A stretch of 63,722 nt of DNA, filler included, from Craspedostauros australis (lineage: Eukaryota), in the NCBI GenBank assembly GCA_030167865.1. It is 23 parts of 23 records of this genome, joined end to end, with 100 filler letters (N's around TTAATTAATTAA, not from the genome) between each part and the next. Parts side by side here need not be neighbours in the genome. Positions count along the whole stretch, not along the records: positions 40,528 to 46,519 come from JALAGF010001796.1; 22 more parts are not named here. The stretch is one strand, 5' to 3'. Positions 14,263 to 62,140 of this stretch are shown here, in pieces (position 1 is the first letter of the stretch; each line of letters opens with the position of its first letter). The notes below the pieces were generated by a model. The model did not search any database and was not told the DNA's origin. It was given only the letters and a program-made list of their open reading frames with translations. The translations under genes and the position numbers were made by a program.

Positions 14263-15741
14263 GAAGAAGTTGCGAAGTTCTGGTGTGAGCATCTTACTGT
14301 CCTTGACGACTTCGATCATGACTGGGTTGACGCCGTTCAAGAATTGACGTGCAAACTCCTGGTCCTCCTTCCAATGATTGAATGCGTGTTCTGGGAGCTT
14401 GAGGAATGGATTGTCCACTTCCATACCGAGTGGTCCCTTGGCCTTGAAGATTCTCTCGTAGTTCTCCTTCGTGGCGATGTCATTGATAGTGAGCGGGTTC
14501 ACGGCGATTCCGGCCTGAGTCTTCAAGGCACAGGCGATCACTCTTGCAAACTTCTTGAAGGAGAACCAGTACTCGACATGCGGTACGCCTTCGACCTTCT
14601 TCATCAACTTCGTTGTGTTGAAATCCGGATACTGCGTTTGTTCCAGAATGGAGAAGGGTGTGGTGGGGCAATGAATGGAAATCGACGGGTAGGAATGATA
14701 TCGAAGATACGAAGAATGAATGGGTCGAAGAGGAGACATGAAACAGAGGAGCAATGAAGGTGTATACAGTTTGTCACATATGTGAGTGTGCGGGAGCGCA
14801 GAGCCGTCAAATTTCATGTTCATCAAGGTTGGTGCGATCGCTCCCAAGCAGAAACACGATCTATGTCCTCCACCGTGAATGCACGTACCTCGTCGTGCCC
14901 GCCGTATGTTCCGTAGTCGTATGTGGCATTGCGATACAAGGCGTCTGGCAGCTTCTCCTTCAGGAATTTGATGATGCCGGAACCGTTTCCGCCGCTCTTG
15001 CCTTCGCTGTAAGCGCCGAGGACGACTGGGTAGAATGCAAAATCGAAGATCAACTGCGCCCAGTCCCTGCTGAGCTGGCCGCTGCGCAAATCCTTGATGG
15101 CCAACCGGAGGAGCAACCGAGCAAGAGGAGGCGTGTTGGCTTTCCAGAATTGCACGAGGCATGCGACGGATGCTTGCGAAGATGCTTCGATCGCGGCGAG
15201 CGGGAAGATGAGGATGGCCAAAAGGCCACCTTCGTCCACGACCCTCTGGAGTCTGAGAGGTTCTTTGGGTTTCATCGAAACGAATTTCTGCATGATCTCG
15301 GCCTTGTCCTCGGCCTTCGTTGTGGCCGCTCCGGACTTGACCGCGCCGAATGCGGATGTTGGCTCCGTTTTGTCGTCGGGGGCTTGGAATCCGTCAAGCA
15401 GTTCGTAGAGGAGCTCCGCCTGCTCGACGTCCATCTCGGAAGTCTCCGTGAGGACCTCAACGTCTTCGAAACTCGCGAATTCTCCCTCGACGGACTCATC
15501 TGTTTCGTCAGCGATGGTTGATCTGTCGCCGAGAGGGGTATTTGCTTGGTCAAGGAGGGAACTGTAGAAATCCATATCCTCGTCGGCAGGCACACCATTG
15601 GGTTCCGTGGTGGGCTCTTCGAGCAGCCCCTTGCTATCCATCAACGGAGCGATGTTGACCTTGCGCATAGCTGCGGCACGCGGGATGACAGGCCTTGCCA
15701 TCTGAAATGCGGAGCTCGGGCATGCCCAGAGCAATCCGGCC
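14263..15741 (-). CDS. LOX: Lipoxygenase, N-terminal part (exons 15741-14889 and 14631-14263; intron 14888-14632), plastid-type presequence
   Basis: GAG|GTACGT donor and CAG|TAT acceptor join GGHDE|YPDF in frame. WKEDQEFARQFLNGVNP is the lipoxygenase W..D.EFARQ.L.G.NP motif. N-terminus AGLLWACPSSA-FQMARP is ASAFAP-like. 14263-14517 overlaps 15842-16096 exactly (255 nt). Confidence 0.9.
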
Positions 15742-15841: not shown

Positions 15842-17246
15842 CAGGCCGGAATCGCCGTGAACCCGCTCACTATCAATGACATCGCCACGAAGGAGAACTA
15901 CGAGAGAATCTTCAAGGCCAAGGGACCACTCGGTATGGAAGTGGACAATCCATTCCTCAAGCTCCCAGAACACGCATTCAATCATTGGAAGGAGGACCAG
16001 GAGTTTGCACGTCAATTCTTGAACGGCGTCAACCCAGTCATGATCGAAGTCGTCAAGGACAGTAAGATGCTCACACCAGAACTTCGCAACTTCTTCGAAA
16101 AGGAAGGAATCGTCAACCTCGAGGCCCTTGCCAAGGCCAACAAGCTCTTTTACGTGGACTACGTCGGCTTGGACGATCTCGAGAAAAACCCTCACCAGGC
16201 ATATCCGGAGGTGTACAACAACGCCATCACCACTCAGGACCAAGAAATCTTGAGCCGCGTCGGAAAGGAGCCGCGCTACTTCAAGGCCCCGATGATCCTC
16301 TTCCGCCAAACCCAGAATCTCAAGAATATCGAGGTCATGGCCATCCAGCTTGATCGCGACGCTGATTCCAAAGTTTACACAGTCGGGAATTCCAACGAGG
16401 CTGAATGGTTGTTCGCCAAGACCACCGTCGCGGCCGCAGATTCTCAATACCACGAGGTAAGCATGCGATACGTCGTTCCACGATGTACCGTGCAGTGGGG
16501 CGCAATGTTATGCAGTGCTGTACTGTACAGCGTGCTGGTGATGCTATCCGTTCAAAAATATTTGCAGTTGTGGCAACATCATTCTGCAGAGAGTTGCTCG
16601 TTCGGCTGTCGATGTCCAATCTATCGGAGACCGATGCCTGTTTCCATCGGCCACACTTTGTCGATATCCCGCTCACAACGCCAAACATATCCCACTCAAC
16701 ATATCCCTGCCCTCTTTCTTGGTCTCCTTCTATCCTTGCGTCCAACATTTCGCACTTTGACAGTGGGTGAGCCATCTTGGAAAGACCCATTTGACCATGG
16801 AGCCACACATCATCGCCATCCACAACACCCTGCGCAGATACAACCACAAGATCTATCCATTCGTCAGACCAATGTGCCGTGACACCCTTTTTCTCAACTT
16901 CGCGGCGCGTGATACTTTGGCCGCTTTTGCACCAAACAGCCTTGGTGATTACATGACATCCGTCGGAACTGGCCAGTTCATGGTACTCATTTACAAGTAC
17001 TGGAAGGATTACGACTTCTTCAAGTCTTCCGCCTTCGACGAAGAGCTGGAAGGGCGCGGATTCACCGACGATGTGAAGCTCGACAACTACCGCTACCGCA
17101 ACGATGGCAAGGAGCTTTGGGAGGCATACGGCTTCTTTGCAACTCAGTATGTCGATGAGTGCTACCAAAACGACACGGAAGTCAGAGGCGACGCCGTCCT
17201 GCAATTGTGGGCTCACGAAACCACTGCTGAGGACCGTGCTTTCATC
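15842..17246 (+). CDS. LOX: Lipoxygenase, central part, variant A (intron 16457-16763)
   Basis: WLFAK; ADSQYHE|WVSHLGKTHL (iron-ligand histidines) joined across a GTAAGC...CAG intron; YRYRNDGKELW; DAVLQLWAHE. Confidence 0.95.
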
Positions 17247-24763: not shown

Positions 24764-25050
24764 CAACGACTACTACTACTACACGACGCCACTACCAGGG
24801 CGAGCACAAGCATGGAACACAACAGCGAGTACGCATGACATTGGCGAAGAAAGTTGCGAAATAGAGCGAAAGTGTGGCGATGATGTTTGAATTTGTGAAC
24901 GGATGNCGATGATGTTTGAATTTGTGAACGGATGTCGATGATGTTGTGTGTGTGATGTGTTTTGTGTGATGTGTTTTGTGTCATGTGTTTTGTGTCATGT
25001 GTTTTGTGTCATGTGTTTTGTGTCATGTGTTTTGTGTCATGTGTTTTGTG
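24764..25050. repeat. Minisatellite-containing segment (14-bp tgtgttttgtgtca array and a 29-bp duplication); 24764-24990 recurs in reverse complement at 59621-59847
   Basis: Direct sequence comparison. Confidence 0.9.
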
Positions 25051-35622: not shown

Positions 35623-37367
35623 GAAGCTCTGGACTANNNNNNNNNNNNNNNNNNNNNNNNNNNNNNNNNNNNNNNNNNNNTTAATTAATTAANNNNNNNN
35701 NNNNNNNNNNNNNNNNNNNNNNNNNNNNNNNNNNNNATTCGTCCTGTGGTACACGAATACCACACGACTCATTCGAATACTACCAAGATGAGTGTAGTTG
35801 GAGCGTTCGATGTGTTATTAGTCATCGGATCTTCGCCTCCTGCTCTGACTTGGAGACAGATGTCAACGTGGTGACATGTTGACATCCTGTTGACGTCAGT
35901 AAGCGTCCTTCTGCTCTCCAGATGTCACATTCCATTGGTGATGCAGGAGTCTGTCAGATGATATCGTCATCTGAGGTTTAGTTGGGAAGTACCTCGAGAT
36001 TCTCTTGGTACCATTGATGGATGGACGGACGATCTTCCAATTCTCTCAGAAATCGTCGATTGCAAATTTCCTCCAGAAATCTTGCTTATTTTCATGTGTT
36101 CCATTTCCGCTGTAATTCTGACGAATCACAGCATTCTATAGACACGAATGTAGTTATACCGTCCAAGTGCGTATGAGAGAATAACGGGTGAACGATGCAC
36201 ATATACACGTACATCTTGACGTATACTCACATGTACATCTCGACAAAAAGACGGACACTCTTAGTTGGATTTTTGTGTGCTTGTGGGACACGATCCAGAA
36301 GGGAAGACCTTGCTGACTGCCAGACTTGGTGAATCTGTTGATGCAGTTAGTGAGGATAAACCATCTGGGTGATAGTTGTTGGTGACAATGAGTAGATTAG
36401 TGCTGTTGTGCTGATCTTGAGTTGTGCTACTTGTTATTTTGAATAGTCTGCATTGTGAGTTGATCAGTTTGAGATGTAGGATGAAGAAACGATGTTCAGT
36501 TGGATGGTGTGGCTCTGCACTGACCCTCAGAGGTTCAGTGCTGAGAACGGACAAGGCTTCTCTCTCTCTCTCTCTCTCTCTCATTCTCCACCATCTGTAG
36601 TAGTCGTTCTATGCTCAAGTACAAGGCCTTGACATCTCGATTGAGGTTGTAATTGAGAACATAGGTAGTCAAGCAAGAGGAATTGCAGTTGGATTCCCTG
36701 TTCGTGTTGAAGCAAGTCGGATCTCCTTGTTGCTGTCATGTGGAGTTGTTAGTTGACATAGCTGGCAATGGAATCGAGATGAGCTGTGACACAAGGATTC
36801 AGAGGAGCATATAGTTCCCGGAGTACATTGAGTTCCGTGAACCAAGTGAGTTTTGAGTCCGCAATGATTCATGAATGAAAGTGGGAGAAGGAGGGAAAAG
36901 AGGGATTGTTCCGTATTCGTAGGCGGAGGGTTTCGCGTCATAATTGGCGCGCAAAAACAAATTCATTGTTCGACATGGGACACACTAAGTGGAAAGTAGT
37001 CTGTTCTTTAGATGAACTTCAACTGTGTCCATGAGACGTCGTATGGACATCTGGACGCTTTGTGCCACCAAGTGTTGCAAGAACAGGTTGGTTGGTGGAC
37101 ATCGGCACTTCAAAAGGGCTGGTTCGTCAATTTCCTCAACAAAAAAGAAAGGAACTTGTAACCAGCGAACCTTCCGTTGATCCGGGCGCGACGCAGAGAT
37201 GACTGGCCTCGCATGAGAAACAGCGGCGAAAAGTCGAGTCCAAAGACATCATCCCAATTGATCAGCGATTTGATTGATTGACTCATTGATTCATTGATTC
37301 TAATAGCTTCATTGATTCAGCGACAGATCGACTGATAGACTGATGAACTCATTGACTGATAACAAAC

Positions 37368-38129
37368 ATGAAAACCGTATCAGCCGCATCATCCGCATCA
37401 TCCGAACCAGCCGCATCATCTGGCAAGTACAAGATATTTGGACCAGCTCTCTTGCGAACATTCCGATGTTTGTGGATACTGGAAGAAGTGGGTGCTGACT
37501 ACGAGCATTTCGCAGTCCTTCCACACTCAGAGGAACTCAAGAAGGCGACCGGGATCCGCAAGGTGCCCGTGCTGATCACGCCGAACGGGTTCACTGTGAG
37601 CGAAAGCTCCGCCATCAACACGTACCTGTGCGACACGTTCTGCAACGAGCATCCGACGCTGGTCCCTCGTGCTGGCAGCCATGAGCGCGCGAGGTACGAT
37701 CAGACCATCTCCGTGCTGACATCAGACCTGGATGCACAAGGCATTTGGATTCAATCGAAATACGAGACAATGAGAGAAATATACGGCTACATCCCCGAAG
37801 CGGTGAAGCAGGCGAGGAAGCACTTCAACAAAACCAATCGCTCGTTGATCAAGCAGCTGCAACAGGAAGGTCCTTACCTGATGGGAAAGCATTTCACGCC
37901 CGCAGATCCGATATACGTGCACATGCTGGAAATCAGCCGAGCGATCGGTTGGGATGACAAGTGGAAAGATGTGGAGTGCATGCGCAACTACATGGCGCTT
38001 TGCACGCAACGGCCTGCATACAAAAAGGTGCATGCCGTGAGAGTCAAAGAAATGCAAGGCACATCCCCGTACGAAGCAGTACGACGAAACGTGCGATCGG
38101 CAAAAACCAAGCAACGCAGCAAGCTCTAA
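37368..38129 (+). CDS. Glutathione S-transferase family protein
   Basis: RTFRCLWILEEVG, KVPVL (cis-Pro), SESSAINTYL, and the YLMGKHFTPAD N-capping motif. Confidence 0.92.
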   Translation: MKTVSAASSASSEPAASSGKYKIFGPALLRTFRCLWILEEVGADYEHFAVLPHSEELKKATGIRKVPVLITPNGFTVSESSAINTYLCDTFCNEHPTLVPRAGSHERARYDQTISVLTSDLDAQGIWIQSKYETMREIYGYIPEAVKQARKHFNKTNRSLIKQLQQEGPYLMGKHFTPADPIYVHMLEISRAIGWDDKWKDVECMRNYMALCTQRPAYKKVHAVRVKEMQGTSPYEAVRRNVRSAKTKQRSKL

Positions 38130-40420: not shown

Positions 40421-40589
40421 AATGCCGNNNNNNNNNNNNNNNNNNNNNNNNNNNNNNNNNNNNNNNNNNNNTTAATTAATTAANNNNNNNNNNNNNNNNN
40501 NNNNNNNNNNNNNNNNNNNNNNNNNNNCAGAAGGTGAACTTCAAATGGCGAGTACTCATGGAGTAGGAACCAGTACTGAACAAACGGAG

Positions 40590-40825
40590 TGTCGAATGCG
40601 GAGTACGCATCGAACACGGAGTATCGTGTAGCATGAGCACACGATGTTGAGAGAGAGAGAATACAGAGAGGAGCGAGAGAGGATCTTGCGTACCGACTCA
40701 TAGTCGGAGACCGAATCTACAAAACAGATTGAAGCGCTGAGAGCATCGGGCAAGAGAACGGCGTACACCGAGAGGATCGGAGTAGCCAAGCAATGAAATA
40801 GCAAACAGACGGCTATCAACCAACA
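40590..40825 (+). mobile_element. Possible 3' LTR of a copia element
   Basis: Short ORF end, then purine-rich gaacaaacggag, then TGTCG...CCAACA termini. Confidence 0.35.
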
Positions 40826-41249
40826 TCATCTTCCACGATCGTAGGTTACCGCGAGCGGAACTTGCCAACAAACGTGCGGATTATGAGATAAGTGCTATGG
40901 TTCTTCCCTTCGAGGGGGATCTCCTGTGGTGTCCTGAATGACAATGCGTGGGGTTTGTGTAGCCCAAGTACCGTGGGTTGAGATCCGTTGTCTGAGTTCT
41001 GTGAGAGACAATGGGCGATGATGCGCGTTGCTGTGGCTTTGGTTCCGTGCGTCGGCGTTTTGGCGATGGTGGGTGTCAGAAACTTGGTTATCGGAACCCC
41101 ATTGCTTCCCTGACACGAATTCCGAAGATCTGCTTCAAGGTTCTGGATCTGTCCCCAAACGTGGGGGCCGGTGAAGTATTCGTTTGACCTACTGGAATGC
41201 TGACAAGTCGGATGATTCGTAGTCTTTCTCACGAAGATGGTTACTAGTT

Positions 41250-41739
41250 TAGCTCTATTATTGAACAAGCAGCTCTCCTTCTCCACCGCAATGGTGGGGC
41301 TGCAGCAATCGAACTCGCTGCACTGAGCGGCGCAGGTCTCCGGATTGCTGAGGTAGTTGGATCCGGAGCAGATTCCGTTGATGTAGGTCTCGACGGACTT
41401 GAAGCCGTCGGCGCCCGCGGCCGGTGGGGCGCCCGGTGCTCTGGTGGGCGACGGCGTCGGGTTGTTGACGGAGTCGGAGTTGTCGTTGGACTTGCCGATC
41501 TGCGTGACGAGGACCGTGATGACGATGGCAACGACGATGCAAACGACGGCCATCGCCAAGTACAAGCAATTTTTGTTCCACCTCGTGTTCTGTTCCATGT
41601 GCTCCGTGGTGTACTTGAATCTGGGCTGCTCTTCGCTTTTGTGGCTGCGGCGGCCGGCCGCGGTCTCGTCCTCGCCGAGGTCGCTCACATCGTCATCGTC
41701 GTCCTGTCGGCGCCTGGCATCTTGTGTTCTTTTATTGTT
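41250..41739 (-). CDS. Type II membrane protein exon with PTPSPTRAP stalk and Cys-rich repeat; apparently truncated near 41250
   Basis: TM LAMAVVCIVVAIVITVLV; C..C...CC...SC pattern; GC3-rich codons that end abruptly. Candidate acceptor CTAACAG at 41746-41740. Start codon not located. Confidence 0.55.
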
Positions 41740-41901
41740 CTGTTAGTTGGTTGGCTGGCTGGCTATGCTCTGTTATTGTTCTGTTAGTGCTCTGTTGGGC
41801 TGGCTGGCTGTATCAGCACAAAATCCGAATAGTGCTAAGTACGTTACTCCCGTAGCCCCCACTATCTATAAATTTCACTTGTGTTCGGTTCAGCAATCGC
41901 A

Positions 41902-41971
41902 TCGCCTGTACCTCAACGGTAGAGCACCAGTAATTCTAACTGAGGTTCTGGGTTCAAATCCCGGCATGGTG
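41902..41971 (+). ncRNA. tRNA-like module in 5' LTR (mutated A and B boxes)
   Basis: TACCTCAACGG and GGTTCAAATCC variants of the 3' LTR module. Confidence 0.6.
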
Positions 41972-42358
41972 CTTTGCTTTTGCTCTCCCCTCGTGATTTT
42001 TCGATAGTGCTCTTTCAGATTAACAGTCGCAGCTAGTTCTGCATCGCTGAGTTAGGACAACCTTGCACAACATGCCTTCGTGGGCGCGTTGCGATCACCG
42101 GATTTCGACCCAGTCTCACACTTGTCTGCTACGGCAGCACTCCCACTTCGTCTGGCAGCATTAGCCACCCAGCAATGAGGGTGCCCCGAGATGGGGAGAC
42201 GCGGGAGATGATAACTTTTCGTCATAGTGCTCTTGAGCAGGTGGTCCACGGTCGTAGCGTAGGGGAGTGTCAGCACAAAAACCGAATAGTGCTAAGTACG
42301 TTACTCCCGTAGCCCCCACTATCTATAAATTTCACTCGTGTTCGGTTCAGCAATCGCA

Positions 42359-42428
42359 TCGCCTGTAGCTCAACGGTAGAGCACCAGTAATTCTAACTGA
42401 GGTTCCGGGTTTGAATCCCGGCATGGTA
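42359..42428 (+). ncRNA. tRNA-like Pol III module in 3' LTR (not a functional tRNA)
   Basis: A box/D arm TAGCTCAACGGTAGAGC and T arm CCGGGTTTGAATCCCGG; TATAAA about 30 nt upstream and T-runs downstream. Acceptor stem and anticodon loop are non-canonical. Confidence 0.75.
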
Positions 42429-43114
42429 CTTTGCTTTTGCTCTCCCCTCGTGATTTTTCGATAGTGCTCTTTCAGGCTGTGTTGCGTACCTCTGGCAGTG
42501 ATCGAATGGAACCAAATTGGGCGGACTGAGGTATTGTATCAGCCGCTCTGTGAGTTCTGTGAAGTCGGTGTCGACTTGGTGCGTGTGGGTCTCTTGCTCG
42601 CTTTGGTTGGGAAACACTGTTGCTGTCTGGATGACAGAATCAATGCAATGGTGGATGCAATCGCAGCTTCACTTCCAAAAGCAAGGGATGAGAAAGCCCG
42701 TTTGTGCACCAAGCGCTGTGTTTCTTCACGACACTCCAGATGCTCATTTTGTGATGTCTTGTCCTGTTCTATCTTTGTCTGATTGTGTCCGATCTTGTCA
42801 TCGCAGAAAGATTCCAAATGACTCCGACCCACCAAAAAACGATTCTTGAACTCGTGAACAAACCCAAATGTCATGAGATTGTCCCAAACCCAGAAAAAAC
42901 AACACGACAGATCGCGGGCTCCATTAGATGTAGCCTTCCCAACTTCATGACCTCATGACTTTAAAGATAAAGCCCCTATGGAGCTATAATCTCGGATTAT
43001 TAATCTAAGTTTGTTAAATTGCATGTTTGCCAAGTTTCATTTAAATTGAAGGCCCAAAATCAAAGAATCCCTGGAGGGACCGCACCGCTATTGACTCACG
43101 GGTCGTATGTATGG

Positions 43115-46100
43115 TCAGTCATCACGCCTTGTCGCATTCCCATCTGGTTCGACATCATGCTCCTCGTCGTCTGCTGCGTCTTCGTCCTCGAACTGATCCA
43201 TCTCCCCCGCGTTTTCGTTGTTCTCCTTGCCCCTTCTGCTTTGCGTATTGATCTTGTCCAGAGAATCCCGCATCCAACTGACGATGTTCCGCACAACGTT
43301 CATATCCTGACGAGTGGTGATGCGATACGCATTCTTGTCGGTCTTCTGACTTTGCCGGCGACGTTCGTCGAGCTTGTCCATCGATTTGGTCAGCAGTGGA
43401 CTCTTATCGGTGGGAAAGCCTGCGTAAAGGGACGTTCCATTGACCTTGTTTCCGGAATACGGGATATCAAGACGAAGTTTGTCTTGCCTGCTTGCAACGC
43501 AGTACAGTCGGTTAAAGCCAAATATGATGTCAACGAGGCTGTTGTGAATCTTGTCTCTGTTGTCGCGGATGTCCTCGATTCCAATTGGGGTGGAATCAAA
43601 ATAATCTTTGGCTTGGACGCAGGCCGTGAAGAGTTCCACTTCCCATCTCGAGAAATTACCTGCGTTGTCTGTGATCTTCCTCGCGCCAACAGTGGAAACG
43701 TATCCATCTGCGAGATTGCTCGATCCCTGCGCCACGGTTGTGAGTGATGGGCAGAATTTCTGATTGGTTGGATTGAATTGGGGCGCTTCTATGTCTCTGA
43801 TCACTTTCTCAAGATCGACGCAGGCCTTCCTCATCTTGAGAAGCTCGTCTGCCAGCTTCTTGTCTATGTCCAACGTTGGCACCAGGGTCTCCCATGTGAT
43901 AGCATTGAAGCTCTCGGCGTTGTCCCATGCCGAGATCAGTTGACGAGGATCTTTGCCAGAGTTTGAATTGACTTGCTTGGTTTTCAACTCGTCCCAACGC
44001 TTCAACACGATGCGAGCCTCAAGGGCTTTGCGAAGTCTTTTCCATTCCTTTTGTAACCACTGATTGGCCTCCTTCGTGGTCTTGGATCCAAAGCCCTCGG
44101 GCTTTTTCGGGCCGGTCGGTTCGTAGACGCTCATCTGAGAAATCTGGTGGTACATTCCATCCATCGCGAGGTCAGACCAACTAGAAACCGGAATCACATC
44201 TTTCAGTGCTTCCCAATTCTCTCCTACGTAGTCTGTCTCGCCACCACTGTCTCCCGTGGACAGCTTGAGCTTCATTCCAAGGGTATCCTCAACGATGGAT
44301 TGGATGCATGTCCTGTTATCCAATGAGACGGTCGTGGCTGCAGTGATGGCAGCACCAATGATCTGCGTTGACAACGCCTCGTAGGCAAATGGCGTTGTTC
44401 CGAGAAAGCCATCTTCACCGTTTAGACTCTTCCCCCTCTCCAACAGCCACACACAGAAGAGTTGAATTGCCTCATCCACGATGAATGGCTTCTCCAGTGT
44501 CGGTTGACCCTTGAAGGTTTCATTGATCACGGTGTTGTTGTTTGCATCCAGAACAATGTTGTCGAATATCGTGAACGGCTCGGGTGTCACCAGTCCAAAC
44601 CTCGTGACGAGAAAATACATGATCTCCTTGTTATCCATTCCAAAGTCCTCAAAGTTGATTCCATAGTCGAGATCCATCGCATGTTGCCTTGCTCTTTCGA
44701 TGTCCATGGGCACGGTGAAGTTTGTTTGATACAGAAGAATCGCAAGTGCCTGTGCCGCTCGCAGAGATCGGTCGCTACCTTTCTCTTCAAAGTCCCTATC
44801 GTCCCACAGACCCGCCAAGCCATTGCTTCTCGCGAATTTATCAAACACCAACGACATCAACCTCATCTCATCGCCAAGCTCGCCGAACTTCAACAGCGTC
44901 TCTGTCAGCTGGTTGACCAAGATCGAGGCCATCCTTGCATTGTGTGATGCGATGATGCTCAGGAATGGCGTCTCCATAATCTTGTCGTAGGTGGGAAGCC
45001 TGGACTGTTTCTTTAGGTTTCCGTCGTATCCATTGCAAAGGGCTTCGTACACTTCCTTGGGATCCTTTTTGGCACTGGGTTCAAGACAGACGAAGTTGTC
45101 GCTTAGAGAACCGACAGCCCCACCGTACATTCCGGTACCTGCGATGGAGAAGACCACCTCGATGGGTGGCTTGCTGGTGTCTCGTGGGAGCCCGCCATCA
45201 TCCGTACTGTTTCCGTTCTTCACGTTTCCAATGGCCTTGTTCATGATGTAGTGACCGAGATCTCTTCCAAGGTCTTCATAGTTTCGAATGACCTCTTTCG
45301 CAAGATTGGGACAGTACCTTGCTTCATCAATGGCAAACACTATCCGAATCCTGTCGTCCTTCACCTTCGGGTGTCCATTGCCTTGCGCGTCGTCGTCGGA
45401 ATCGTCGTCAGAATCGGCGTCAGTCGCGGCGCCTTGCGCGTCGTTCGTGGCTTGAATCGAGTCGAGTGTACGCAACCGCTGCTGCACCGTGTTTGCGATC
45501 GTTGATAGCACCTCGCCGTTGTTTTCGAAGAAGTCATCATCCATACATTTCTTCAAAAAACCCCGGCTCTGATTCGTCCGAGCTTCGCTTGCTTCCGCCG
45601 TCGCTACGTCATTCTTTGCTACGTACATCAGAGTGATGACAGCATCTCTTGACTCTGCACTTGTGGCCAAATCGACTGTCTTGCCTGTACCGCTGCCGGA
45701 AAAGAAGACACGGACAATGCTGGATGCTGCCGGTTCCTTATATTGGGTGAGATGCACTCTTCGGGGGATTCCATATTCGTCGCCCATATGTCGGAACTTG
45801 CATTTGCCGATGTAGTATGCTACTGCTGTGGCAGTGCCACATTTCATGCGGCGAAGAGAATGCTTTGTGCGTTTCCGTACAGCGGTGAAGAGCCTCTCGA
45901 GACTCTCCAGTACCGATTGGCGGAGATCCACTTTTGGGTTATCGAGTCCACCGAGACCCTTGATCGACTCCCATGCGAATAGCGCGTTGCCCTCATTGCC
46001 ATCGTTGTAGAGCCATTGGGCGAGGAGGTGGTCTTTTTGAAGCTCGGCATAGGCGTTACTGTACGATCGTATGTCTCCCTCCTTGTCGCCATCCGTTTTA

Positions 46101-46519
46101 ACCATTTCGATGATCTTCTTTCGGAAGGTCATCATTCTGTCGAGCCATTCAAGCTCCCATGCGCTCATCTTGTCTTCATCTGAACCTGTTACATTCATTT
46201 TGTTGATTGCGTCCTTGATGACGCTTTCGCCAGGCTTCGGCAACGTCTTCAGCATCTTGATGACATCGCCATCATCCTTGATGGTCCAGAAGTCGAAGGT
46301 CTTGAAGACAGAATCGTAGCTGGTCACATTGAGCAGCGCGTCACCACCGGTGGAGCCGGCCTCATTGGTGGAGGGTGCGGCCATGCGGAAGCCGGGGTGC
46401 CAACGTTGGTGAAGTCCATCGTGATGATGTTGGCACTGACCACGACGCAGTTGCGCAAGGAATGGCGAGGACGACACCGAAGGGGTGGAGCCAGACCTGA
46501 ATGGCTGCAATGGCCGTGG
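43115..46519 (-). CDS. P-loop NTPase + putative PD-(D/E)xK (QxK) nuclease-fold protein, paralogue 2 (>1130 aa; frame open to contig end)
   Basis: Walker A SGSGTGKT; Walker B IRIVFAIDEA; FSIAGTG; HNARM; SNLADGYVS...VQAKDY; acidic tail. Confidence 0.75.
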   Translation of the reverse strand, partial: PRPLQPFRSGSTPSVSSSPFLAQLRRGQCQHHHDGLHQRWHPGFRMAAPSTNEAGSTGGDALLNVTSYDSVFKTFDFWTIKDDGDVIKMLKTLPKPGESVIKDAINKMNVTGSDEDKMSAWELEWLDRMMTFRKKIIEMVKTDGDKEGDIRSYSNAYAELQKDHLLAQWLYNDGNEGNALFAWESIKGLGGLDNPKVDLRQSVLESLERLFTAVRKRTKHSLRRMKCGTATAVAYYIGKCKFRHMGDEYGIPRRVHLTQYKEPAASSIVRVFFSGSGTGKTVDLATSAESRDAVITLMYVAKNDVATAEASEARTNQSRGFLKKCMDDDFFENNGEVLSTIANTVQQRLRTLDSIQATNDAQGAATDADSDDDSDDDAQGNGHPKVKDDRIRIVFAIDEARYCPNLAKEVIRNYEDLGRDLGHYIMNKAIGNVKNGNSTDDGGLPRDTSKPPIEVVFSIAGTGMYGGAVGSLSDNFVCLEPSAKKDPKEVYEALCNGYDGNLKKQSRLPTYDKIMETPFLSIIASHNARMASILVNQLTETLLKFGELGDEMRLMSLVFDKFARSNGLAGLWDDRDFEEKGSDRSLRAAQALAILLYQTNFTVPMDIERARQHAMDLDYGINFEDFGMDNKEIMYFLVTRFGLVTPEPFTIFDNIVLDANNNTVINETFKGQPTLEKPFIVDEAIQLFCVWLLERGKSLNGEDGFLGTTPFAYEALSTQIIGAAITAATTVSLDNRTCIQSIVEDTLGMKLKLSTGDSGGETDYVGENWEALKDVIPVSSWSDLAMDGMYHQISQMSVYEPTGPKKPEGFGSKTTKEANQWLQKEWKRLRKALEARIVLKRWDELKTKQVNSNSGKDPRQLISAWDNAESFNAITWETLVPTLDIDKKLADELLKMRKACVDLEKVIRDIEAPQFNPTNQKFCPSLTTVAQGSSNLADGYVSTVGARKITDNAGNFSRWEVELFTACVQAKDYFDSTPIGIEDIRDNRDKIHNSLVDIIFGFNRLYCVASRQDKLRLDIPYSGNKVNGTSLYAGFPTDKSPLLTKSMDKLDERRRQSQKTDKNAYRITTRQDMNVVRNIVSWMRDSLDKINTQSRRGKENNENAGEMDQFEDEDAADDEEHDVEPDGNATRRDD

Positions 46520-50607: not shown

Positions 50608-52013
50608 GATGAAAGCACGGTCCTCAGCAGTGGTTTCGTGAGCCCACAATTGCAGGACGGCGTCGCCTCTGACTTCCGTGTCGTTTTGGTAGCACTCATC
50701 GACATACTGAGTTGCAAAGAAGCCGTATGCCTCCCAAAGCTCCTTGCCATCGTTGCGGTAGCGGTAGTTGTCGAGCTTCACATCGTCGGTGAATCCGCGC
50801 CCTTCCAGCTCTTCGTCGAAGGCGGAAGACTTGAAGAAGTCGTAATCCTTCCAGTACTTGTAAATGAGTACCATGAACTGGCCAGTTCCGACGGATGTCA
50901 TGTAATCACCAAGGCTGTTTGGTGCAAAAGCGGCCAAAGTATCACGCGCCGCGAAGTTGAGAAAAAGGGTGTCACGGCACATTGGTCTGACGAATGGATA
51001 GATCTTGTGGTTGTATCTGCGCAGGGTGTTGTGGATGGCGATGATGTGCGGCTCCATGGTCAAGTGGGTCTTTCCAAGATGGCTCACCCACTGTCGAAGT
51101 GTGAAATGTTGGACGCAAGGATAGAGGGAGACCAGGAAAGGAGGGCAGGGAGATGTTGAGTGGGATATGTTCGGCGCTGTGAGCGGGATATCGACAAAGT
51201 GTGGCCGATGGAAACAGGCATCGGTCTCCGATAGATTGGACATCGACAGCCGAACGAGCCACTCTCTACAGAATGATGTTGCCACAACTGCAAATATTTT
51301 TGAACGGATAGTATCACCAGTACGCTGTACAGTACAGCGCTGCATAACATTGCGCCCCACCGCACGGTACATCGTGGAACGACGTATCGCATGCTTACCT
51401 CATGGTATTGAGAATCTGCGGCCGCGACGGTGGTCTTGGCGAACAACCATTCGGTCTCGTTGGAATTCCCGACTGTGTAAACCTTAGAATCAGCTTCGCG
51501 ATCAAGCTGGATGGCCATGATCTCGATATTCTTGAGATTCTGGGTTTGGCGGAAGAGGATCATCGGGGCCTTGAAGTAGCGTGGCTCCTTTCCGACGCGG
51601 CTCAAGATTTCTTGGTCCTGGGTGGTGTTGACGTTGTTGTACACCTCCGGATATGCCTGGTGAGGGTTTTTCTCGAGATCGTCCAAGCCGACGTAGTCCA
51701 CGTAAAAGAGCTTGTTGGCCTTGGCAAGGGCCTCGAGGTTGACGATTCCTTCCTTTTCGAAGAAGTTGCGAAGTTCTGGTGTGAGCATCTTACTGTCCTT
51801 GACGACTTCGATCATGACTGGGTTGACGCCGTTCAAGAATTGACGTGCAAACTCCTGGTCCTCCTTCCAATGATTGAATGCGTGTTCTGGGAGCTTGAGG
51901 AATGGATTGTCCACTTCCATACCGAGTGGTCCCTTGGCCTTGAAGATTCTCTCGTAGTTCTCCTTCGTGGCGATGTCATTGATAGTGAGCGGGTTCACGG
52001 CGATTCCGGCCTG
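50608..52013 (-). CDS. LOX: Lipoxygenase central part, variant B (intron 51398-51091)
   Basis: Near-identical reverse complement of 15842-17246 with the same ends; intron 1 nt longer; 5 amino-acid differences. Confidence 0.95.
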
Positions 52014-55391: not shown

Positions 55392-57658
55392 CGCGAAAAA
55401 ACATTGGAGTAAGGCCACAGACGGTCCAGTGCACAACACAAACCATCGGAACGGGTGACGACCGGGAAGAGGCGCACGAGACGCAACGAGCTGAGGAACC
55501 GCGAGGGGACTCGGCGAATGGTTAGACCAGAAGGGCAAGAGCAACAGTCGGTGGCAGCACGACGAACGACTCAGAGCCCACAACAAGCGCCTGCGGATCG
55601 GGAGGTTATACCGCAACAACCCAACAGCAGCAGACGACAGGATACGAACGAAGGGGGAAGGATGACACGGGTGAAGAGGAGAATGCTGAGGAAGCGAACG
55701 GGGCAACTGAGGATAGGGTTGCAGAACTTTGGAGGACTCGGAAGGAGACCAGGAGTAGTTGACGAAGGATTGAAGAGGTGGATGAACGAAGGCGAATTCG
55801 ATGTATTTGGGATCACGGAGGTGAATGTGGACTGGAGGACGGCATCAACAGAGCACACACTCAAAGGGCGAATACAGGAATGGTGGCCAACAGGAACGGC
55901 AGTGGCGAAGACGGCGAATAACACGACCAACGAACCCACGCAAAGCAAACAGTGGGGAGGAGTGGCAATGATCAGCAGATTCCAAGCGGCAATCCGCATC
56001 ATGGGACAAGGCGAAGACCCAACCAAGTTGGGGCGATGGGTGTGGCAGCGATACCGCGGAGCAAATCAGCAAACGCTCCGAGTGGTAACAGCATATAGAC
56101 CGTGCAGACCACGAAGCAAGGGATTCTTGAACACACACGCACAACAGCGGCGGTACTTCAATGAGAAGAAGATGGACAAGGAGCCTCGAGCGGCGATGAT
56201 AGAGGACCTTCAGAAAGCGATTCAGGCGTGGAGAGNGGAAGGCGACCATGTAATCGTGGCAATGGACTGCAACGAAGACACGAATTCGGCCACAATGCGG
56301 CAATTCCAAGAGGCCACAGGGCTAACCAACACGATGGAATGCGCAGGTGACGAAGTCAGTCGATTGCCAACGCATCGACTAGGAAAAGTGCCTATCGACG
56401 GAATCTTCGCTACAGCAGGAGTTCGGATCGAAGGGGCAGGAGCAAGCGAATGGGACGAGGGGATACAAATGAGGCAAGCAGACCACCGATGCCTGTGGAT
56501 CGACGTCAGCATGGTCGCGGTGCTCGGGCAATCAATGCCCAACTTGCGCAAGGCGGTGTCGAGGAGAGTGAAGACAGAAGACCCAAGGATCGTACAGAAG
56601 TTCAACGACGCCTACAAAGCGCACTTGAAACAGCACAAAGCAAGGGCAAGAGCGTTTCGGCTGGAACAAGCGGCATCAGAAGAATGGACGAAAAAAATGG
56701 AGAAGGAGGCAGAGAAACTTGACAGAATTCGCGTGGAAGGAATATGGAAAGCCGACAAGACCTGCCGCAGACTAAGGATGGGAGGCATACCGTACTCGAA
56801 GGAGTACAAACGGATTGAAGCCAACATCGGGCTGTGGAACAACGTGGTGAGAAAGCAACGAGGAGCCAACATCTCGTCGAAGACCATCGTGAGACTGGCG
56901 AAGAGAGCAGGGGAAACGCGTAAGGTACAAGAACTGATGAGATGTGCCAACGAGGAGGTAGCAAAGGAACAGGAATCGGCGTATGGGAACCTCAAGCAGT
57001 TCAGAACAAGAGCGACGAAAGCGAGAGAGAACTGGTTAGAAGGACTAGCGGAAGCGAGAGGCGGGGAGGAAAGGAGACGAAGAGGGGAACAGCAGCGAAG
57101 CAACAACAGAGGAAGAGAAGAAAGAGAGGTTGGAGAAGCGACATCGCAGCAACTACGTCAGCTGAGGATGAAGGAGAGAGTGCGGGCAACATATCGGAGG
57201 ATACGGATGGCCACAGGCGAAAATGCAACGGCAGGTATATCCATGGTGATAGCACCGGATGGGAACGGGCAGTGGGTGGAACGGACCAGCAAAGAAGACA
57301 TCGAGAAAGGATGCATGGAAGAAAACAAGAAACGATTTCGGCAAACCGAGAACACGCCGTTCATGCACGGCCAGCTGGCNAGAGAATTCGGGTATCTCGG
57401 GGTGACCGAAGCGGCGGAGCAAACGCTCAACGGAAGCTACGCACCACGACCATGGGTTGATGAAGGCGCTGCGAAGCTCCTACAAGGGCTGAAATCGGTA
57501 GCAAGCCGGAGCATACCAGCAGGAATGACAACGAAGGAGTTCCAACAAGGATGGAAAAGAGCCAAGGAGGACATGTCGGCAGGACCATCGGGGCTGCATT
57601 TTGGCCATTTCAAAGCTATAGCGCACCATCGGAGGAATTCGGAGTTTGAAGCAAGCAT
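55392..57658 (+). mobile_element. Non-LTR retrotransposon ORF2 apurinic-endonuclease region up to the RT start
   Basis: LRIGLQNFGG, GITEVN, QWGGV, DPTKLGRW, VVTAYRPC, MDCNE, PIDGIF, ADHRCLWID and SAGPSGLHFGHFK. Confidence 0.9.
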
Positions 57659-60588: not shown

Positions 60589-60857
60589 TATTAGAGCACT
60601 ATCGAAAAATCACAAGGGGTGAGCAAAAGCAAAGTACCATGCCGGGATTCGAACCCGGAACCTCAGTTAGAATTACTGGTGCTCTACCGTTGAGCTACAG
60701 GCGATGCGATTGCTGATCCGAACACAAGTGAAATTTATAGATAGTGGGGGCTACGGGAGTAACGTACTTAGCGCTATTCAGTTTTGTGCTGATACTCCCC
60801 TACGCTACGACCGTGGACCACCTGCTCAAGAGCACTATGACGGAAAGTTGTCATCTC
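60589..60857 (-). mobile_element. Second copy of the tRNA-LTR TRIM: internal 3' part, PPT and 3' LTR (60794-60589)
   Basis: 60857-60795 matches 42205-42267. The LTR has an intact B box GGTTCGAATCCC, with the tRNA-like module at 60704-60635. Cut by the contig end. Confidence 0.92.
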
Positions 60858-60957
60858 NNNNNNNNNNNNNNNNNNNNNNNNNNNNNNNNNNNNNNNNNNN
60901 NTTAATTAATTAANNNNNNNNNNNNNNNNNNNNNNNNNNNNNNNNNNNNNNNNNNNN

Positions 60958-62140
60958 TGGATCGTTGCCGAAGAATTGGCGATGTGGTGACTCCTTTTGA
61001 TTCTTCGCTACGGTGATGTTGGCGATGGCAGTGGCAGTGCTTGCAGCTGCTGCCCACAGGCCATGCCTATACTCTTCGTCGAGTTGTGCTCCGTTGAGCA
61101 TGGAGCGGATCTTGGTGTAGAGGTACGCAAACTTGCGTTCTACTCTGCCGTTCTGTTGCGGCGTGTTCGATGCCGTGAATTTGAATTTCACGTTCAGTCC
61201 TGCATCGATGAGAATATCCTGCGTGGATTTGTTCTCTCCGCTGTTGTCNCCTCGGAAGATGATTTGTTGATCACCAGTCNGTGACTTGATNGTNTGGANG
61301 AATNGTTTGATGTANCCTGGTTGNTCACTNTTGTTCTTGAGAAAGAAACTCCAGCAGTGATCCGTGCAGTCGTCCACGATCAGGGTCCAGTAGCGTTTAT
61401 CTCCGAAGCTTATGTGTTTAGTGTATCTAATGTCAATGAAGAGCCGTTCGCCGTGGCGAGTTGCTCTCGGAATGGTTGCCTTCGGGATGTTCTTCACTCT
61501 TGCGTTCGCGACCGCGCAGTCACGACATACTGGCATCTCGCCGATAATCTTCCATCCGTATTGGGCGGCTGTCCGCTTCATGGCTTCGAGTGGCGCGTGG
61601 CCGAGCATTCGATGCAAGTTCACCGCGCTGATCTCCTTGGATGGGTTCTTGACGATGGCTGTGCAAGCCTTGTCGTCGTTCGTTGGCATGATGGAATGCA
61701 TCTGCACTCCCGTGATGAATCCGTTGGCTGTGGGGAAGACTCGATCGAATACGATCTTCGTTCCGGATCCGTTGATAATGTCCATCAGAATGCCGTTGCT
61801 ACCAAGCTGGTAACCGTTGTACAGAGCCTTGTTCGTGGAGAAAAGGTTCACCGCCATTTTCGGTGTGTACTTCACGTCATCGAGCCGGATGATGTGGCCA
61901 GTGTTGTCTCGTTGCTTGACCTTCAAGCGAATGGATCCCATTTTGGGAGAGTCCAGTTTCGTACTGTCTCCCACTTGGATGAAGGACTTGATGTGCCGCA
62001 CGTTGAAGAGAGCGGCGTCTGAATTGACGATGTGACACGAAGCTCCACTGTCGGCGAGCCAGGTGTCCTTGTTGACCTTGTCTTTGTATCGAGTGCTCAG
62101 CTCATGGAGCTGCTCCACAGCTGCTGCAGCTGTATCGGTC
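60958..62140 (-). mobile_element. Ty1/copia protease, GAG-pre-integrase and integrase
   Basis: WLADSGASCH; LHRMLGH...CRDC; RLFIDI; IVDD; DNSGEN; TPQQNGRVERK. Confidence 0.95.

Follow-up and report, generated by a model that had tools for sequence, protein, structure and literature searches.

The segment at positions 41811-42474 of the window, by which we mean the whole stretch of 63,722 nt analysed here (filler included) from the diatom Craspedostauros australis (assembly GCA_030167865.1), is very probably a tRNA-bearing TRIM. On balance, we take it for one insertion of a non-autonomous TRIM-class LTR retrotransposon of the Helenus type, 664 bp long, in which each LTR carries a tRNA-like module. 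The kind of element has already been described; new here are the diatom host, a candidate primer-binding site (PBS) corresponding to tRNA-Asn, and the extra copies.

Structure of the element

The whole region lies inside one gap-free contig (40528-46519). The repeat search and BLASTN recover the LTR-core-LTR layout that an earlier note on this DNA had put forward: two direct repeats of 207 nt each, 41811-42017 and 42268-42474, with mismatches at 8 of 207 positions, enclose a non-coding internal core of 250 nt (42018-42267), and the total comes to 207 + 250 + 207 = 664 bp. Before trimming, the repeat search pairs 41810-42018 with 42267-42475 at 96% identity. Neither gag nor pol is present between the LTRs. 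No ORF of at least 120 aa is found in the core, the longest stop-to-stop frames overlapping the element reach 40-105 aa, and no ORF inside the element bears a Pfam domain. The features are the following.

41806..41810, + strand: 5' target-site duplication (TSD), GGCTG, identical to the 5-mer at 42475-42479
41811..42017, + strand: 5' LTR, 207 nt, starting with TA and ending with CA, 8/207 mismatches to 42268-42474
41867..41872, + strand: TATAAA of the 5' LTR, about 30-35 nt 5' of the tRNA-like unit (motif only)
41907..41966, + strand: tRNA-like module in the 5' LTR; against Rfam tRNA it reaches 22.2 bits (E 0.18) over model positions 6-65 of 71
41909-41919, + strand: A box of the 5' LTR, mutated by a single change, TACCTCAACGG (motif)
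41951-41961, + strand: B box of the 5' LTR, GGTTCAAATCC (motif)
41978-41981 and 41997-42001, + strand: T4 and T5 runs of the 5' LTR, 3' of the module, possible Pol III terminators
42018..42033, + strand: candidate PBS, GATTAACAGTCGCAGC, immediately 3' of the 5' LTR, complementary to the tRNA-Asn(GUU) anticodon arm
42018..42267, + strand: non-coding core, 250 nt, with a T4 run at 42216-42219
42261..42267, + strand: polypurine tract (PPT) AGGGGAG, abutting the 3' LTR; an identical tract precedes the LTR of copy 3
42268..42474, + strand: 3' LTR, 207 nt, starting with TG and ending with CA (repeat comparison, alignment)
42324-42329, + strand: TATAAA of the 3' LTR (motif)
42364..42423, + strand: tRNA-like module in the 3' LTR; against Rfam tRNA it reaches 32.7 bits, at a gathering score of 29, with E 2.2e-4
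42366-42376, + strand: A box of the 3' LTR, TAGCTCAACGG (motif)
42408-42418, + strand: B box of the 3' LTR, GGTTTGAATCC, a single change (motif)
42435-42438 and 42454-42458, + strand: T4 and T5 runs of the 3' LTR, 3' of the module
42475..42479, + strand: 3' TSD, GGCTG, identical to 41806-41810

The TSD GGCTG named in the earlier note is found on both sides, and integration is shown to have duplicated these 5 bp of the target. Upstream, the flank consists of a short repeat of the GGCT type, with a further GGCTG at 41798, so that a chance match of 5 nt comes more easily here, and since GGCTGT stands on both sides the boundaries may shift by one base (LTR ...CAG, TSD GCTGT). The PPT next to TG and the terminal CA, read off earlier as well, hold up: AGGGGAG abuts the 3' LTR, which starts with TG, and both LTRs end with CA. 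The TG start belongs to the 3' LTR only, TA being found in the 5' LTR, in a third copy and in one contig of the sequencing run X1 (both described below). The start typical of the family seems to be TA, not TG. Within the core, the stretch ~42211-42241 resembles the LTR 3' end, with a 19-nt BLASTN match of core 199-217 to LTR 188-204.

The tRNA-like module in the LTRs

The tRNA likeness of the LTR modules is beyond chance. With Rfam RF00005 the modules score 22.2 bits in the 5' LTR, 32.7 in the 3' LTR and 35.4 in copy 3 (E 5e-6), and thus two of the three copies clear the gathering score of 29 bits; the E values listed for the two LTRs come from a 2.5-kb search. All three alignments are limited to model positions 6-65 of 71; they take in the D, anticodon and T arms and leave out the acceptor stem, of whose 7 pairs 4 remain by eye. 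In each LTR, TATAAA, A box, B box and T-runs follow one another in the order and with the spacing of a tRNA gene. The A box TAGCTCAACGG is intact in the 3' LTR and in copy 3 and reads TACCTCAACGG in the 5' LTR, while the B box GGTTCGAATCC is found in copy 3 only, with GGTTCAAATCC in the 5' LTR and GGTTTGAATCC in the 3' LTR. Most of what the earlier note had said of the module is thereby borne out: its motifs are located in each LTR, with the A box of the 5' LTR mutated, and its kept arms beside a decayed acceptor stem agree with a match that stops at positions 6-65. It had also considered a canonical tRNA gene array, with which the unmatched acceptor stem and the presence of PBS and PPT do not agree.

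The origin from a tRNA-Arg(TCT)-like sequence that the same note suggested is rejected, as is any other isotype. The Infernal-aligned anticodon loop has 7 nt and reads AAUUCUA, and ARAGORN at a lowered threshold gives each of the three copies a different isotype: Glu(ttc), SeC(tca) or Leu(caa). A functional tRNA gene is rejected too: ARAGORN at default settings calls no tRNA gene anywhere in the window, the three modules included, the Infernal match is local (6-65), and the module folds are no more stable than those of shuffled sequences (z 0.40, 0.15 and -1.77). The Rfam matches over 41000-43500 at E<=10 are two tRNA matches and one chance-level miRNA; a Cassandra/Ajax 5S LTR and a retrozyme were discarded on the lack of 5S and hammerhead matches in this search. 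As for a tRNA-derived SINE, the module begins ~90 nt into a 207-nt unit, and terminal direct repeats surround a PBS and a PPT, by which this candidate was also dismissed.

The candidate primer-binding site and metagenomic families that share it

Reverse-complemented, the 16-mer that follows the 5' LTR reads as an anticodon arm whose loop is CTGTTAA. The 17-mer derived from it is the anticodon arm of tRNA-Asn(gtt) genes called by ARAGORN in 118 of 120 prokaryotic loci. Positions 27-40 of these prokaryotic genes, which may differ from the host's, equal the reverse complement of 42018-42031; in the examples inspected by eye, 14 of the 16 nt of the PBS complement match, in one uninterrupted stretch. 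Judging by this complementarity, the PBS is likely of the tRNA-Asn anticodon-arm type. Inspected by eye for self-priming, or priming by its own tRNA-like RNA, the LTR module is not convincingly complementary to the PBS region.

Among the 120 metagenomic loci holding the 16-mer, 48 have it directly after an LTR end (...TTCA). These 48 loci make up two LTR-retrotransposon families (39 loci and 9 loci), in which the LTRs begin at a sharply defined, shared 5' boundary. The 16-mer was the search key for the families, hence its identity follows from the search and only the position after the LTR is independent. Compared with the window element, the L022-like (412-nt LTR) and L035-like (~500-nt LTR) families have the same 16-nt PBS after an LTR ending with TTTCA, and share with it a short LTR motif, ATTTCACYYGTG, which is weak evidence; they differ from it in their longer LTRs and their long ORF, and otherwise show no sequence similarity to it. 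In the metagenomic loci inspected, an ATG-led long ORF lies 43-60 nt 3' of the PBS. For 12 such downstream ORFs of PBS-sharing loci no Pfam match is obtained, nor is there a CCHC motif in them or a tblastn match to the window. P0032, a longer relative of 820 aa, has no Pfam and no Atlas match and is unlike the Copia fragment of the window. A tRNA-like Rfam match (E<=1) occurs in 0 of 20 scanned loci of the two families, which fits the published idea that the autonomous partners are without a Pol III unit (PMC10886601, in the portions used here). A 24-mer from the tRNA-like part of the LTR has 0 matches in metagenomic contigs and 0 in viral contigs, and a 20-mer of the LTR end plus PBS has 0 in viral contigs.

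Other copies and the age of the insertion

The window holds a third copy, cut by a scaffold end, with the following parts.

60593..60857, - strand: third copy, BLASTN 95-97% identity
60795-60857, - strand: end of the core, its last 63 nt, with the PPT (alignment)
60593-60794, - strand: LTR (alignment)
60640-60699, - strand: tRNA-like module, the best preserved, Rfam tRNA 35.4 bits, E 5e-6
60687-60697, - strand: A box, TAGCTCAACGG (motif)
60645-60655, - strand: B box, GGTTCGAATCC (motif)

Core tail, PPT and LTR of this copy are as in 41811-42474, and its flank is different. Further evidence comes from X1, a public sequencing run assembled as Logan contigs. One contig runs over the 5' LTR/core junction (41987-42141) and another over the core/3' LTR junction (42192-42418), and the entire 250-nt core is tiled by contigs and joined to LTR on both sides. 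The core part 42112-42218 is present in two versions, with 2 and 11 differences. After 42475, a contig continues with 168 unlike letters, that is, with a different flank; 41300-41986 and 42497-43000 are uncovered. The joining of the core to LTR, together with the two variants, indicates several copies with the same short core. Complete copies with a TSD number one, and the multicopy layout rests on the X1 contigs and one truncated copy.

The copy at 41811-42474 looks old and is probably inactive, in view of its LTRs being 3.9% apart, of CpG changes in the B-box region and of the mutated A box of the 5' LTR. Three LTR differences at CpG sites lie in or just before the B box, and 4 of the 8 fall inside the ~60-nt module. 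When the insertion is removed in an empty-site model, no long minus-strand ORF is restored, and the insertion therefore looks intergenic or intronic. A neighbouring ORF has 1134 aa, with homologues that give no clear taxonomic signal.

Proposed mobilisation and transcription

We propose that the first strand would be primed by a 5' fragment of tRNA-Asn(GUU) ending near position 40, which would pair with the 14-16 nt immediately 3' of the 5' LTR, an internal 'half-tRNA' priming of the sort known from Copia-lineage elements. Gag, reverse transcriptase and integrase would come in trans from an autonomous LTR retrotransposon with the same primer. A Copia partner is plausible, considering that the TSD has 5 bp and that the PBS looks complementary to an anticodon region; by BLASTN, though, the window's one Copia fragment, located on a different scaffold, has no sequence in common with the element, and its Atlas matches come from mixed taxa. 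The decayed tRNA unit in each LTR may serve as promoter, as proposed for 'TRIMp3' elements, the chances for and against being about equal. Transcription by Pol III would begin at about 41900, within the 5' LTR; a share of the transcripts would run past the weak T-runs and terminate at those in the 3' LTR, giving an RNA of ~540-560 nt with the tRNA-like module as its repeated R region. The T4 and T5 runs of the 5' LTR and the T4 run of the core (42216-42219) precede the 3' LTR and so could halt Pol III early, and TATAAA could equally serve Pol II. As far as such motifs can tell, Pol III as the working promoter has an even chance at best.

A wider reading would place the element in an independent stramenopile TRIMp3 lineage with a captured tRNA unit, TATA and terminator included, within an undescribed LTR clade primed by the 5' half of tRNA-Asn, whose autonomous relatives without the unit would be abundant in microbial-mat metagenomes and whose active copies would be transcribed by Pol III; taken as a whole, we regard this as rather unlikely.

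Alternative explanations

It is possible, though we doubt it, that the element is a Pol II-driven TRIM in which the tRNA-like unit is a passenger, left by an old tRNA gene or a tRNA-derived SINE in the ancestral LTR. Pol II would then start ~30 nt 3' of TATAAA, and the module would merely be the 5' part of R. The location of TATAAA 30-35 nt 5' of the module agrees with this, as does a module fold no better than that of shuffled sequence. The three T4-T5 runs between the presumed start and the 3' LTR would hinder Pol III, yet the T-runs are at the place expected for the terminator of a tRNA gene, and by eye the stretch from the module to the end of the LTR is free of AATAAA. The A and B boxes have decayed like neutral DNA, half of the LTR differences being in the module; however, the decay of dead copies is uninformative on selection acting on an active master copy. 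Moreover, the A and B boxes of copy 3 still agree with the published motifs, with acceptor stem and anticodon loop degenerate, and boxes kept with the acceptor lost is the pattern of SINE heads and of Helenus in the portions of PMC10886601 used here.

Two other explanations concern the element itself. That it is a one-off product of internal deletion or recombination from an autonomous element with the same tRNA-bearing LTRs, with no miniature family, appears improbable. Such a product could be suspected since copy 3 is cut 63 nt into the core by the scaffold end and the rest of its interior is unseen, since the core stretch like the LTR 3' end hints at past rearrangement, and since the next scaffold (60958-62139, - strand) encodes a Copia Pol_BBD domain and, by eye, an integrase-like stretch. 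The scaffolds, however, are joined by artificial N44-TTAATTAATTAA-N44 linkers, which makes their adjacency meaningless, and this Copia fragment has no sequence in common with the element. The core tiled in X1, joined to LTR on both sides and present in two variants, speaks against a unique product, and so does the TSD, by which the short form itself integrated unless the deletion came later. We give hardly any credence to the remaining view, that there is no retroelement here and that we see a local tandem duplication containing a pair of tRNA pseudogenes, an array of tRNA genes or an artefact of assembly. ARAGORN by default does call no tRNA, the draft assembly is fragmented and rich in gaps, and the repeat-like upstream flank eases a match of 5 nt; but the PBS after the LTR end is common to two independent LTR-retrotransposon families, the PPT abuts the 3' repeat, the same LTR stands in other flanks in copy 3 and X1, both junctions are bridged by X1 contigs, and the gap-free contig contains the entire region. 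Nor do tRNA-like parts without an acceptor stem make a working tRNA array.

Relation to known elements

Helenus is the name of TRIMs with tRNA-derived sequence in their LTRs (Kojima 2024, PMC10886601). The portions of that paper used here give as hosts fungi, six animal phyla and Selaginella (one lycophyte), in agreement with the fungi, animals and plants of the earlier note. They report lengths of 311-1263 bp, TSDs of 4-5 bp, conserved LTR motifs TRGCY...YGG (box A) and GGTTC (box B), and anticodon-loop primers of Tyr, Ile, Asp and iMet. Helenus is defined there by structure and is considered polyphyletic by the author, who proposes multiple independent origins, and the proposed origin is a tRNA-derived SINE inserting into the LTR of a TRIM. 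An anticodon-region PBS is tied in the same portions to Copia, as in Drosophila copia, yeast Ty5 and Puccinia Copia families. Diatoms, stramenopiles and oomycetes have 0 mentions each in PMC10886601. Our literature search found no report of a tRNA-bearing TRIM from diatoms or stramenopiles, in agreement with the earlier note, whose author knew of none.

The element fits the Helenus definition as published in those portions. Its two LTRs are short, its small non-coding interior holds a candidate PBS and a PPT, and its 664 bp lie inside the range of 311-1263 bp. The LTRs include a tRNA-like segment which has A and B boxes and would hardly give rise to a functional tRNA; the boxes of copy 3, TAGCTCAACGG and GGTTCGAATCC, fit TRGCY...YGG and GGTTC (PMC10886601). 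Fungal Helenus in particular is resembled in the 5-bp TSD and in the candidate PBS, with its complementarity to the anticodon region of a tRNA. The differences are the diatom (stramenopile) host, the presumed tRNA-Asn primer and the TA start, and the likeness is one of structure. An anticodon stem-loop PBS directly after the 5' LTR and a 5-bp TSD are also features of the Copia lineage (PMC10886601, same portions), from which the diatom element differs in being without coding capacity and in a primer that would be tRNA-Asn. Cassandra is likewise a TRIM with a small-RNA gene unit in its LTRs, having a Pol III promoter and terminator, and serves as the model of how an LTR element could be driven by Pol III; for Cassandra, transcription by Pol III is stated, whereas here there are motifs, and the unit is 5S there and a tRNA-like module here. 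As in SINE2, a tRNA-related head carries A and B boxes, the acceptor stem has degenerated and T-runs lie downstream, and the differences are the ~90 nt 5' of the module in the repeated unit and a mobilisation of the LTR type, not LINE-dependent.

If our reading is true, tRNA-bearing TRIMs extend to the SAR supergroup, which would support a repeated origin of the design, and a non-autonomous class would be added to the diatom TE inventories, which are Copia-dominated in the publications examined. LTRs of this sort run the risk of being mistaken for tRNA pseudogenes or SINEs in diatom genomes. The tRNA-Asn anticodon-arm PBS, common to two abundant metagenomic families, may serve as a marker for finding the autonomous partners. 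With ~0.66 kb, the element would be a short test case for Pol III-driven LTR retrotransposition in transformable diatoms, and should the TRIMp3 reading hold, TFIIIC-binding tRNA-like units would be scattered through diatom genomes.

Architecture of the element

The element under study occupies 664 nt (41811-42474) inside a single gap-free contig, 40528-46519. Our repeat search returns a direct repeat whose copies, at 41810-42018 and at 42267-42475, share 96% identity, and cutting the repeats to canonical ends leaves two LTRs of 207 nt each, 41811-42017 and 42268-42474, with 8 mismatches. The core between them (42018-42267, 250 nt) contains no long reading frame according to the ORF search. The short motifs of the element are as follows:

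41806-41810 and 42475-42479: target-site duplication (TSD), identical 5-mers GGCTG
42018-42033: predicted primer-binding site (PBS) GATTAACAGTCGCAGC, first bases of the core; reverse-complemented, it can be read as an anticodon arm, with CTGTTAA as the loop
42261-42267: polypurine tract (PPT), purine run AGGGGAG, directly adjoining the 3' repeat

The TSD is to be read with the caveat that a GGCT-type short repeat makes up the upstream flank, and since GGCTGT is present on both sides, the element boundaries can be shifted by one base. In this flank (41714-41810) short repeats of the TGTTCTGTTAG type occur together with GGCT units, and the element is integrated into, or beside, a microsatellite-like tract. 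Both LTRs terminate in CA. A TG start is found in the 3' LTR only; the 5' LTR, a partial third copy in the window (copy 3) and one contig of another data set (X1, a public sequencing run) start with TA, and since TA starts outnumber TG, the family-wide state is probably TA. Overall, these features are those of an integrated, non-coding LTR retroelement. The repeat search and motif coordinates bear out the LTR-core-LTR layout, TSD, PPT and terminal CA that the earlier note had described. Within the core, a stretch TTTTCG..ATAGTGCTCTT..CAG (42211-42241) resembles the final ~26 nt of the LTR and may be what a past rearrangement left of an earlier LTR end.

The tRNA-like unit in the LTRs

Scoring by Infernal against the Rfam tRNA model RF00005 (gathering score 29), proposed earlier as a check on the LTR module, finds a tRNA match in all three copies:

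41907-41966, +: tRNA-like module, 5' LTR, 22.2 bits
42364-42423, +: tRNA-like module, 3' LTR, 32.7 bits
60640-60699, -: tRNA-like module, copy 3, 35.4 bits, E 5e-6

The three alignments all span model positions 6-65 of 71: they include the D, anticodon and T arms but leave the acceptor stem unaligned. Part of the element's LTR has a tRNA origin. Since ARAGORN at default settings calls no tRNA gene here, and the RNA fold of the module is no more stable than that of shuffles (z 0.40, 0.15 and -1.77), the module is a tRNA relic, and a working tRNA gene is rejected. As for the isotype, the earlier note had suggested a tRNA-Arg(TCT) origin, which our results neither support nor refute: Infernal leaves the anticodon loop as AAUUCUA, and ARAGORN gives Glu(ttc) for one copy only at an 80% threshold and three differing answers at 70%. 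With such inconsistent calls, no isotype is assigned.

The layout around the module is that of a tRNA gene, with TATAAA 30-35 nt upstream, an A box TAGCTCAACGG, a B box GGTTCGAATCC, and then T4 and T5 runs. Both boxes are intact in copy 3. The element's own boxes are altered, the 5' LTR A box containing TACC and the two B boxes reading GGTTCAAATCC and GGTTTGAATCC. Three of the 8 LTR differences (LTR positions 139, 145 and 146) are CpG-site transitions, which would agree with decay of methylated, inactive DNA. Given the LTR divergence of 3.9% and the box mutations, the element at 41811-42474 is probably dead.

The primer-binding site

We take CTGTTAA to be the anticodon loop of tRNA-Asn(GUU). 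A 17-mer probe, made of the PBS complement with the stem closed by three paired bases, has exact matches at 120 or more loci in prokaryotic genomes, and for 118 of the 120 among the matches listed ARAGORN calls tRNA-Asn(gtt), the 17-mer forming the anticodon arm. Between the prokaryotic tRNA-Asn and the PBS complement 14 consecutive nt agree, at positions 27-40. Therefore the PBS complement is a natural tRNA-Asn arm, on prokaryotic evidence that may not hold for the diatom's own tRNA-Asn. Priming from the anticodon region is described for fungal Helenus elements, which are TRIMs with tRNA-derived LTR sequence, and for Copia elements, with precedents in Drosophila copia and Ty5, in PMC10886601.

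In metagenome contigs the 16-mer PBS has at least 120 exact matches. At 48 of 120 loci among the matches listed it stands in PBS orientation directly 3' of ...TTCA, and TTTCA precedes it in 43 of the 121 matches listed. Identity of the 16-mer is built into the search; its position directly past the LTR end is independent. As this position recurs in two separate families, the 16-mer is probably the working PBS of a retrotransposon lineage. Outside the 48, a few matches represent the 3' portion of tRNA-like sequences of bacterial type. At seven loci (L020, L034, L063, L036, L090, L094 and L102) a T arm and ...GCCA lie 3' of the 16-mer, with no tRNA-like 5' half (ARAGORN, 0 genes); these may be tRNA-Asn 3' parts at bacterial mobile-element integration sites. 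The remaining matches look like chance.

Metagenomic families sharing the PBS

The 48 loci form two families, 39 similar to locus L022 and 9 similar to L035 (among the matches listed). In the L022 family the similarity begins sharply 412 nt upstream, with an LTR starting TGAAAG and ending TTTCA; in the L035 family the LTR is ~500 nt. An ATG-led ORF starts 43-60 nt past the PBS in the inspected loci of both, and the ORFs show no Pfam match, no CCHC motif and no Atlas match. Compared with both families, the element has BLAST-detectable similarity only over a stretch of 23-31 nt that takes in the five terminal LTR bases and the PBS. A motif of 14-15 nt, ATTTCACYYGTG plus flanking bases, is common to all three LTRs, lying near the LTR 5' end in L022 (LTR ~1089-1500, element orientation) and L035, and ~60 nt in, directly past TATAAA, in the window LTR (41870-41885); it barely exceeds shuffles: three first-family loci score 23-30 and L035 scores 20, where the shuffled sets have means of ~18 and maxima of 24-28.

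Rfam at E<=1 yields no match in 20 scanned loci (15 L022-like, 5 L035-like), and their LTRs carry no tRNA-like match. According to PMC10886601, a Pol III unit (SINE or tRNA gene) is proposed to have entered a miniature element's LTR, autonomous partners retaining Pol II LTRs; the families would fit as such partners. One locus, L061, has a tandem arrangement within 1-960 (element orientation): a first LTR and PBS lead into ~94 nt of 5' UTR and ORF start, after which LTR and PBS recur ahead of the complete ORF. Its 452-nt repeat is 92.7% identical, and since no PPT precedes the second LTR, the locus appears to have arisen by recombination or template switching and not to be a TRIM.

Further copies and surroundings

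The window is a draft assembly of many short scaffolds linked by 100-nt artificial linkers N44-TTAATTAATTAA-N44 (e.g. 60858-60957), so that scaffolds adjoining across a linker are not genomic neighbours and gene order there is not trustworthy. N runs of 61-151 nt elsewhere look like true scaffold gaps. BLASTN of the element against the window detects one additional copy, copy 3 (60593-60857, -), with the last 63 nt of the core including the same PPT, 202 nt of LTR and then unrelated flank, the scaffold end cutting the inner side. The adjoining scaffold (60958-62139, -) carries a pol fragment with a Pol_BBD domain of Copia type (Pfam E 1.7e-14) and, as read by eye, an integrase-like stretch; several of its positions are single Ns. 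This fragment has no LTR on its own scaffold and no sequence in common with the element by BLASTN, and the linker makes its adjacency to copy 3 meaningless.

In X1 (Logan contigs, either RNA or DNA; contig alignments used, not depth or uncovered parts), 15 contigs align to the element, 14 of them at 95% identity or more. One spans the 5' LTR/core junction (41987-42141) and one the core/3' LTR junction (42192-42418), and two versions of the core region 42112-42218 are present, one with 2 differences and the other with 11. A second data set therefore shows the short core with LTR attached at either end, and more than one sequence variant of it. Another contig departs from the LTR past 42475 into 168 unlike letters, showing at least one further insertion site there.

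Elsewhere in the window, lipoxygenase-like ORF fragments (PF00305, E 3.5e-5 to 8.9e-20) lie at 14263-15393(-), 15842-16882(+), 50608-51399(-) and 51084-52013(-), on several scaffolds, which suggests a multigene family or collapsed paralogues. A long ORF at 55413-57656(+) that weakly matches Exo_endo_phos (AP-endonuclease-like), at E 3.9e-5 and slightly under the Pfam cut-off, could be a non-LTR retrotransposon endonuclease, and an ORF at 13310-14074(+) with a borderline zf-CCHC (zinc-knuckle) match (E 1e-3) may be a gag remnant from a different retroelement. At 24960-25047(+) the pattern listing gives TTTT seven times at 14-nt spacing, suggesting a 14-nt tandem repeat.

Mechanism and relation to known elements

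The first strand is probably primed by a 5' tRNA-Asn fragment ending near position 40, the plus strand probably from AGGGGAG, and the proteins would probably be provided in trans. Pol III transcription from the tRNA-derived unit, starting near 41900, has about an even chance of being right; TATAAA could equally place Pol II at the same start site. With R as the module up to the T-runs and U5 as the last 16-37 nt, the full RNA would be ~540-560 nt, within reach of Pol III. What speaks most against Pol III is that it would have to read through a T4 run in the core as well as the 5' LTR's own T4 and T5. Cassandra, whose LTRs retain the 5S terminator (PMC10886601), presents the same paradox.

By structural definition the element agrees with Helenus in TRIM architecture, tRNA-derived LTR sequence, boxes A and B, PPT and a length in range; a predicted PBS and, in the one complete copy, a 5-bp TSD would fit as well. 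Cassandra and Ajax differ in carrying 5S, and both identities are rejected for lack of a 5S match in the Rfam search; a retrozyme is rejected with no hammerhead match in Rfam, and a SINE identity is rejected as well. The host marker is a GST ORF (37356-38129), which shares 92% identity with a Craspedostauros-labelled transcriptome protein, the other named relative being from Seminavis; judging from this one gene, the element's host is a diatom. The genus Craspedostauros belongs to the raphid pennate diatoms.

PMC10886601 names fungi, six animal phyla and Selaginella as Helenus hosts; diatoms, stramenopiles and oomycetes are absent from it. The earlier note knew of no such element in diatoms, and our full-text literature search likewise finds no tRNA-bearing or Pol III-promoter LTR element reported for them; Repbase, Dfam and the Helenus supplementary tables could hold a stramenopile entry. 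One Phaeodactylum paper, in the portion seen, lists 27 'putative TRIM/LARD' with no further detail, and a 2025 diatom TE preprint mentions neither TRIMs, SINEs nor tRNA, its sole 'trim' match being the software TrimAl. The element is best filed as a Helenus-type design, described in 2024, in a new eukaryotic supergroup. Both the tRNA-bearing TRIM design and the idea that it arose repeatedly had been put forward before, and use of Pol III here is a prediction; what is new is a probable tRNA-Asn half-primer PBS together with autonomous-looking metagenomic relatives that share it.
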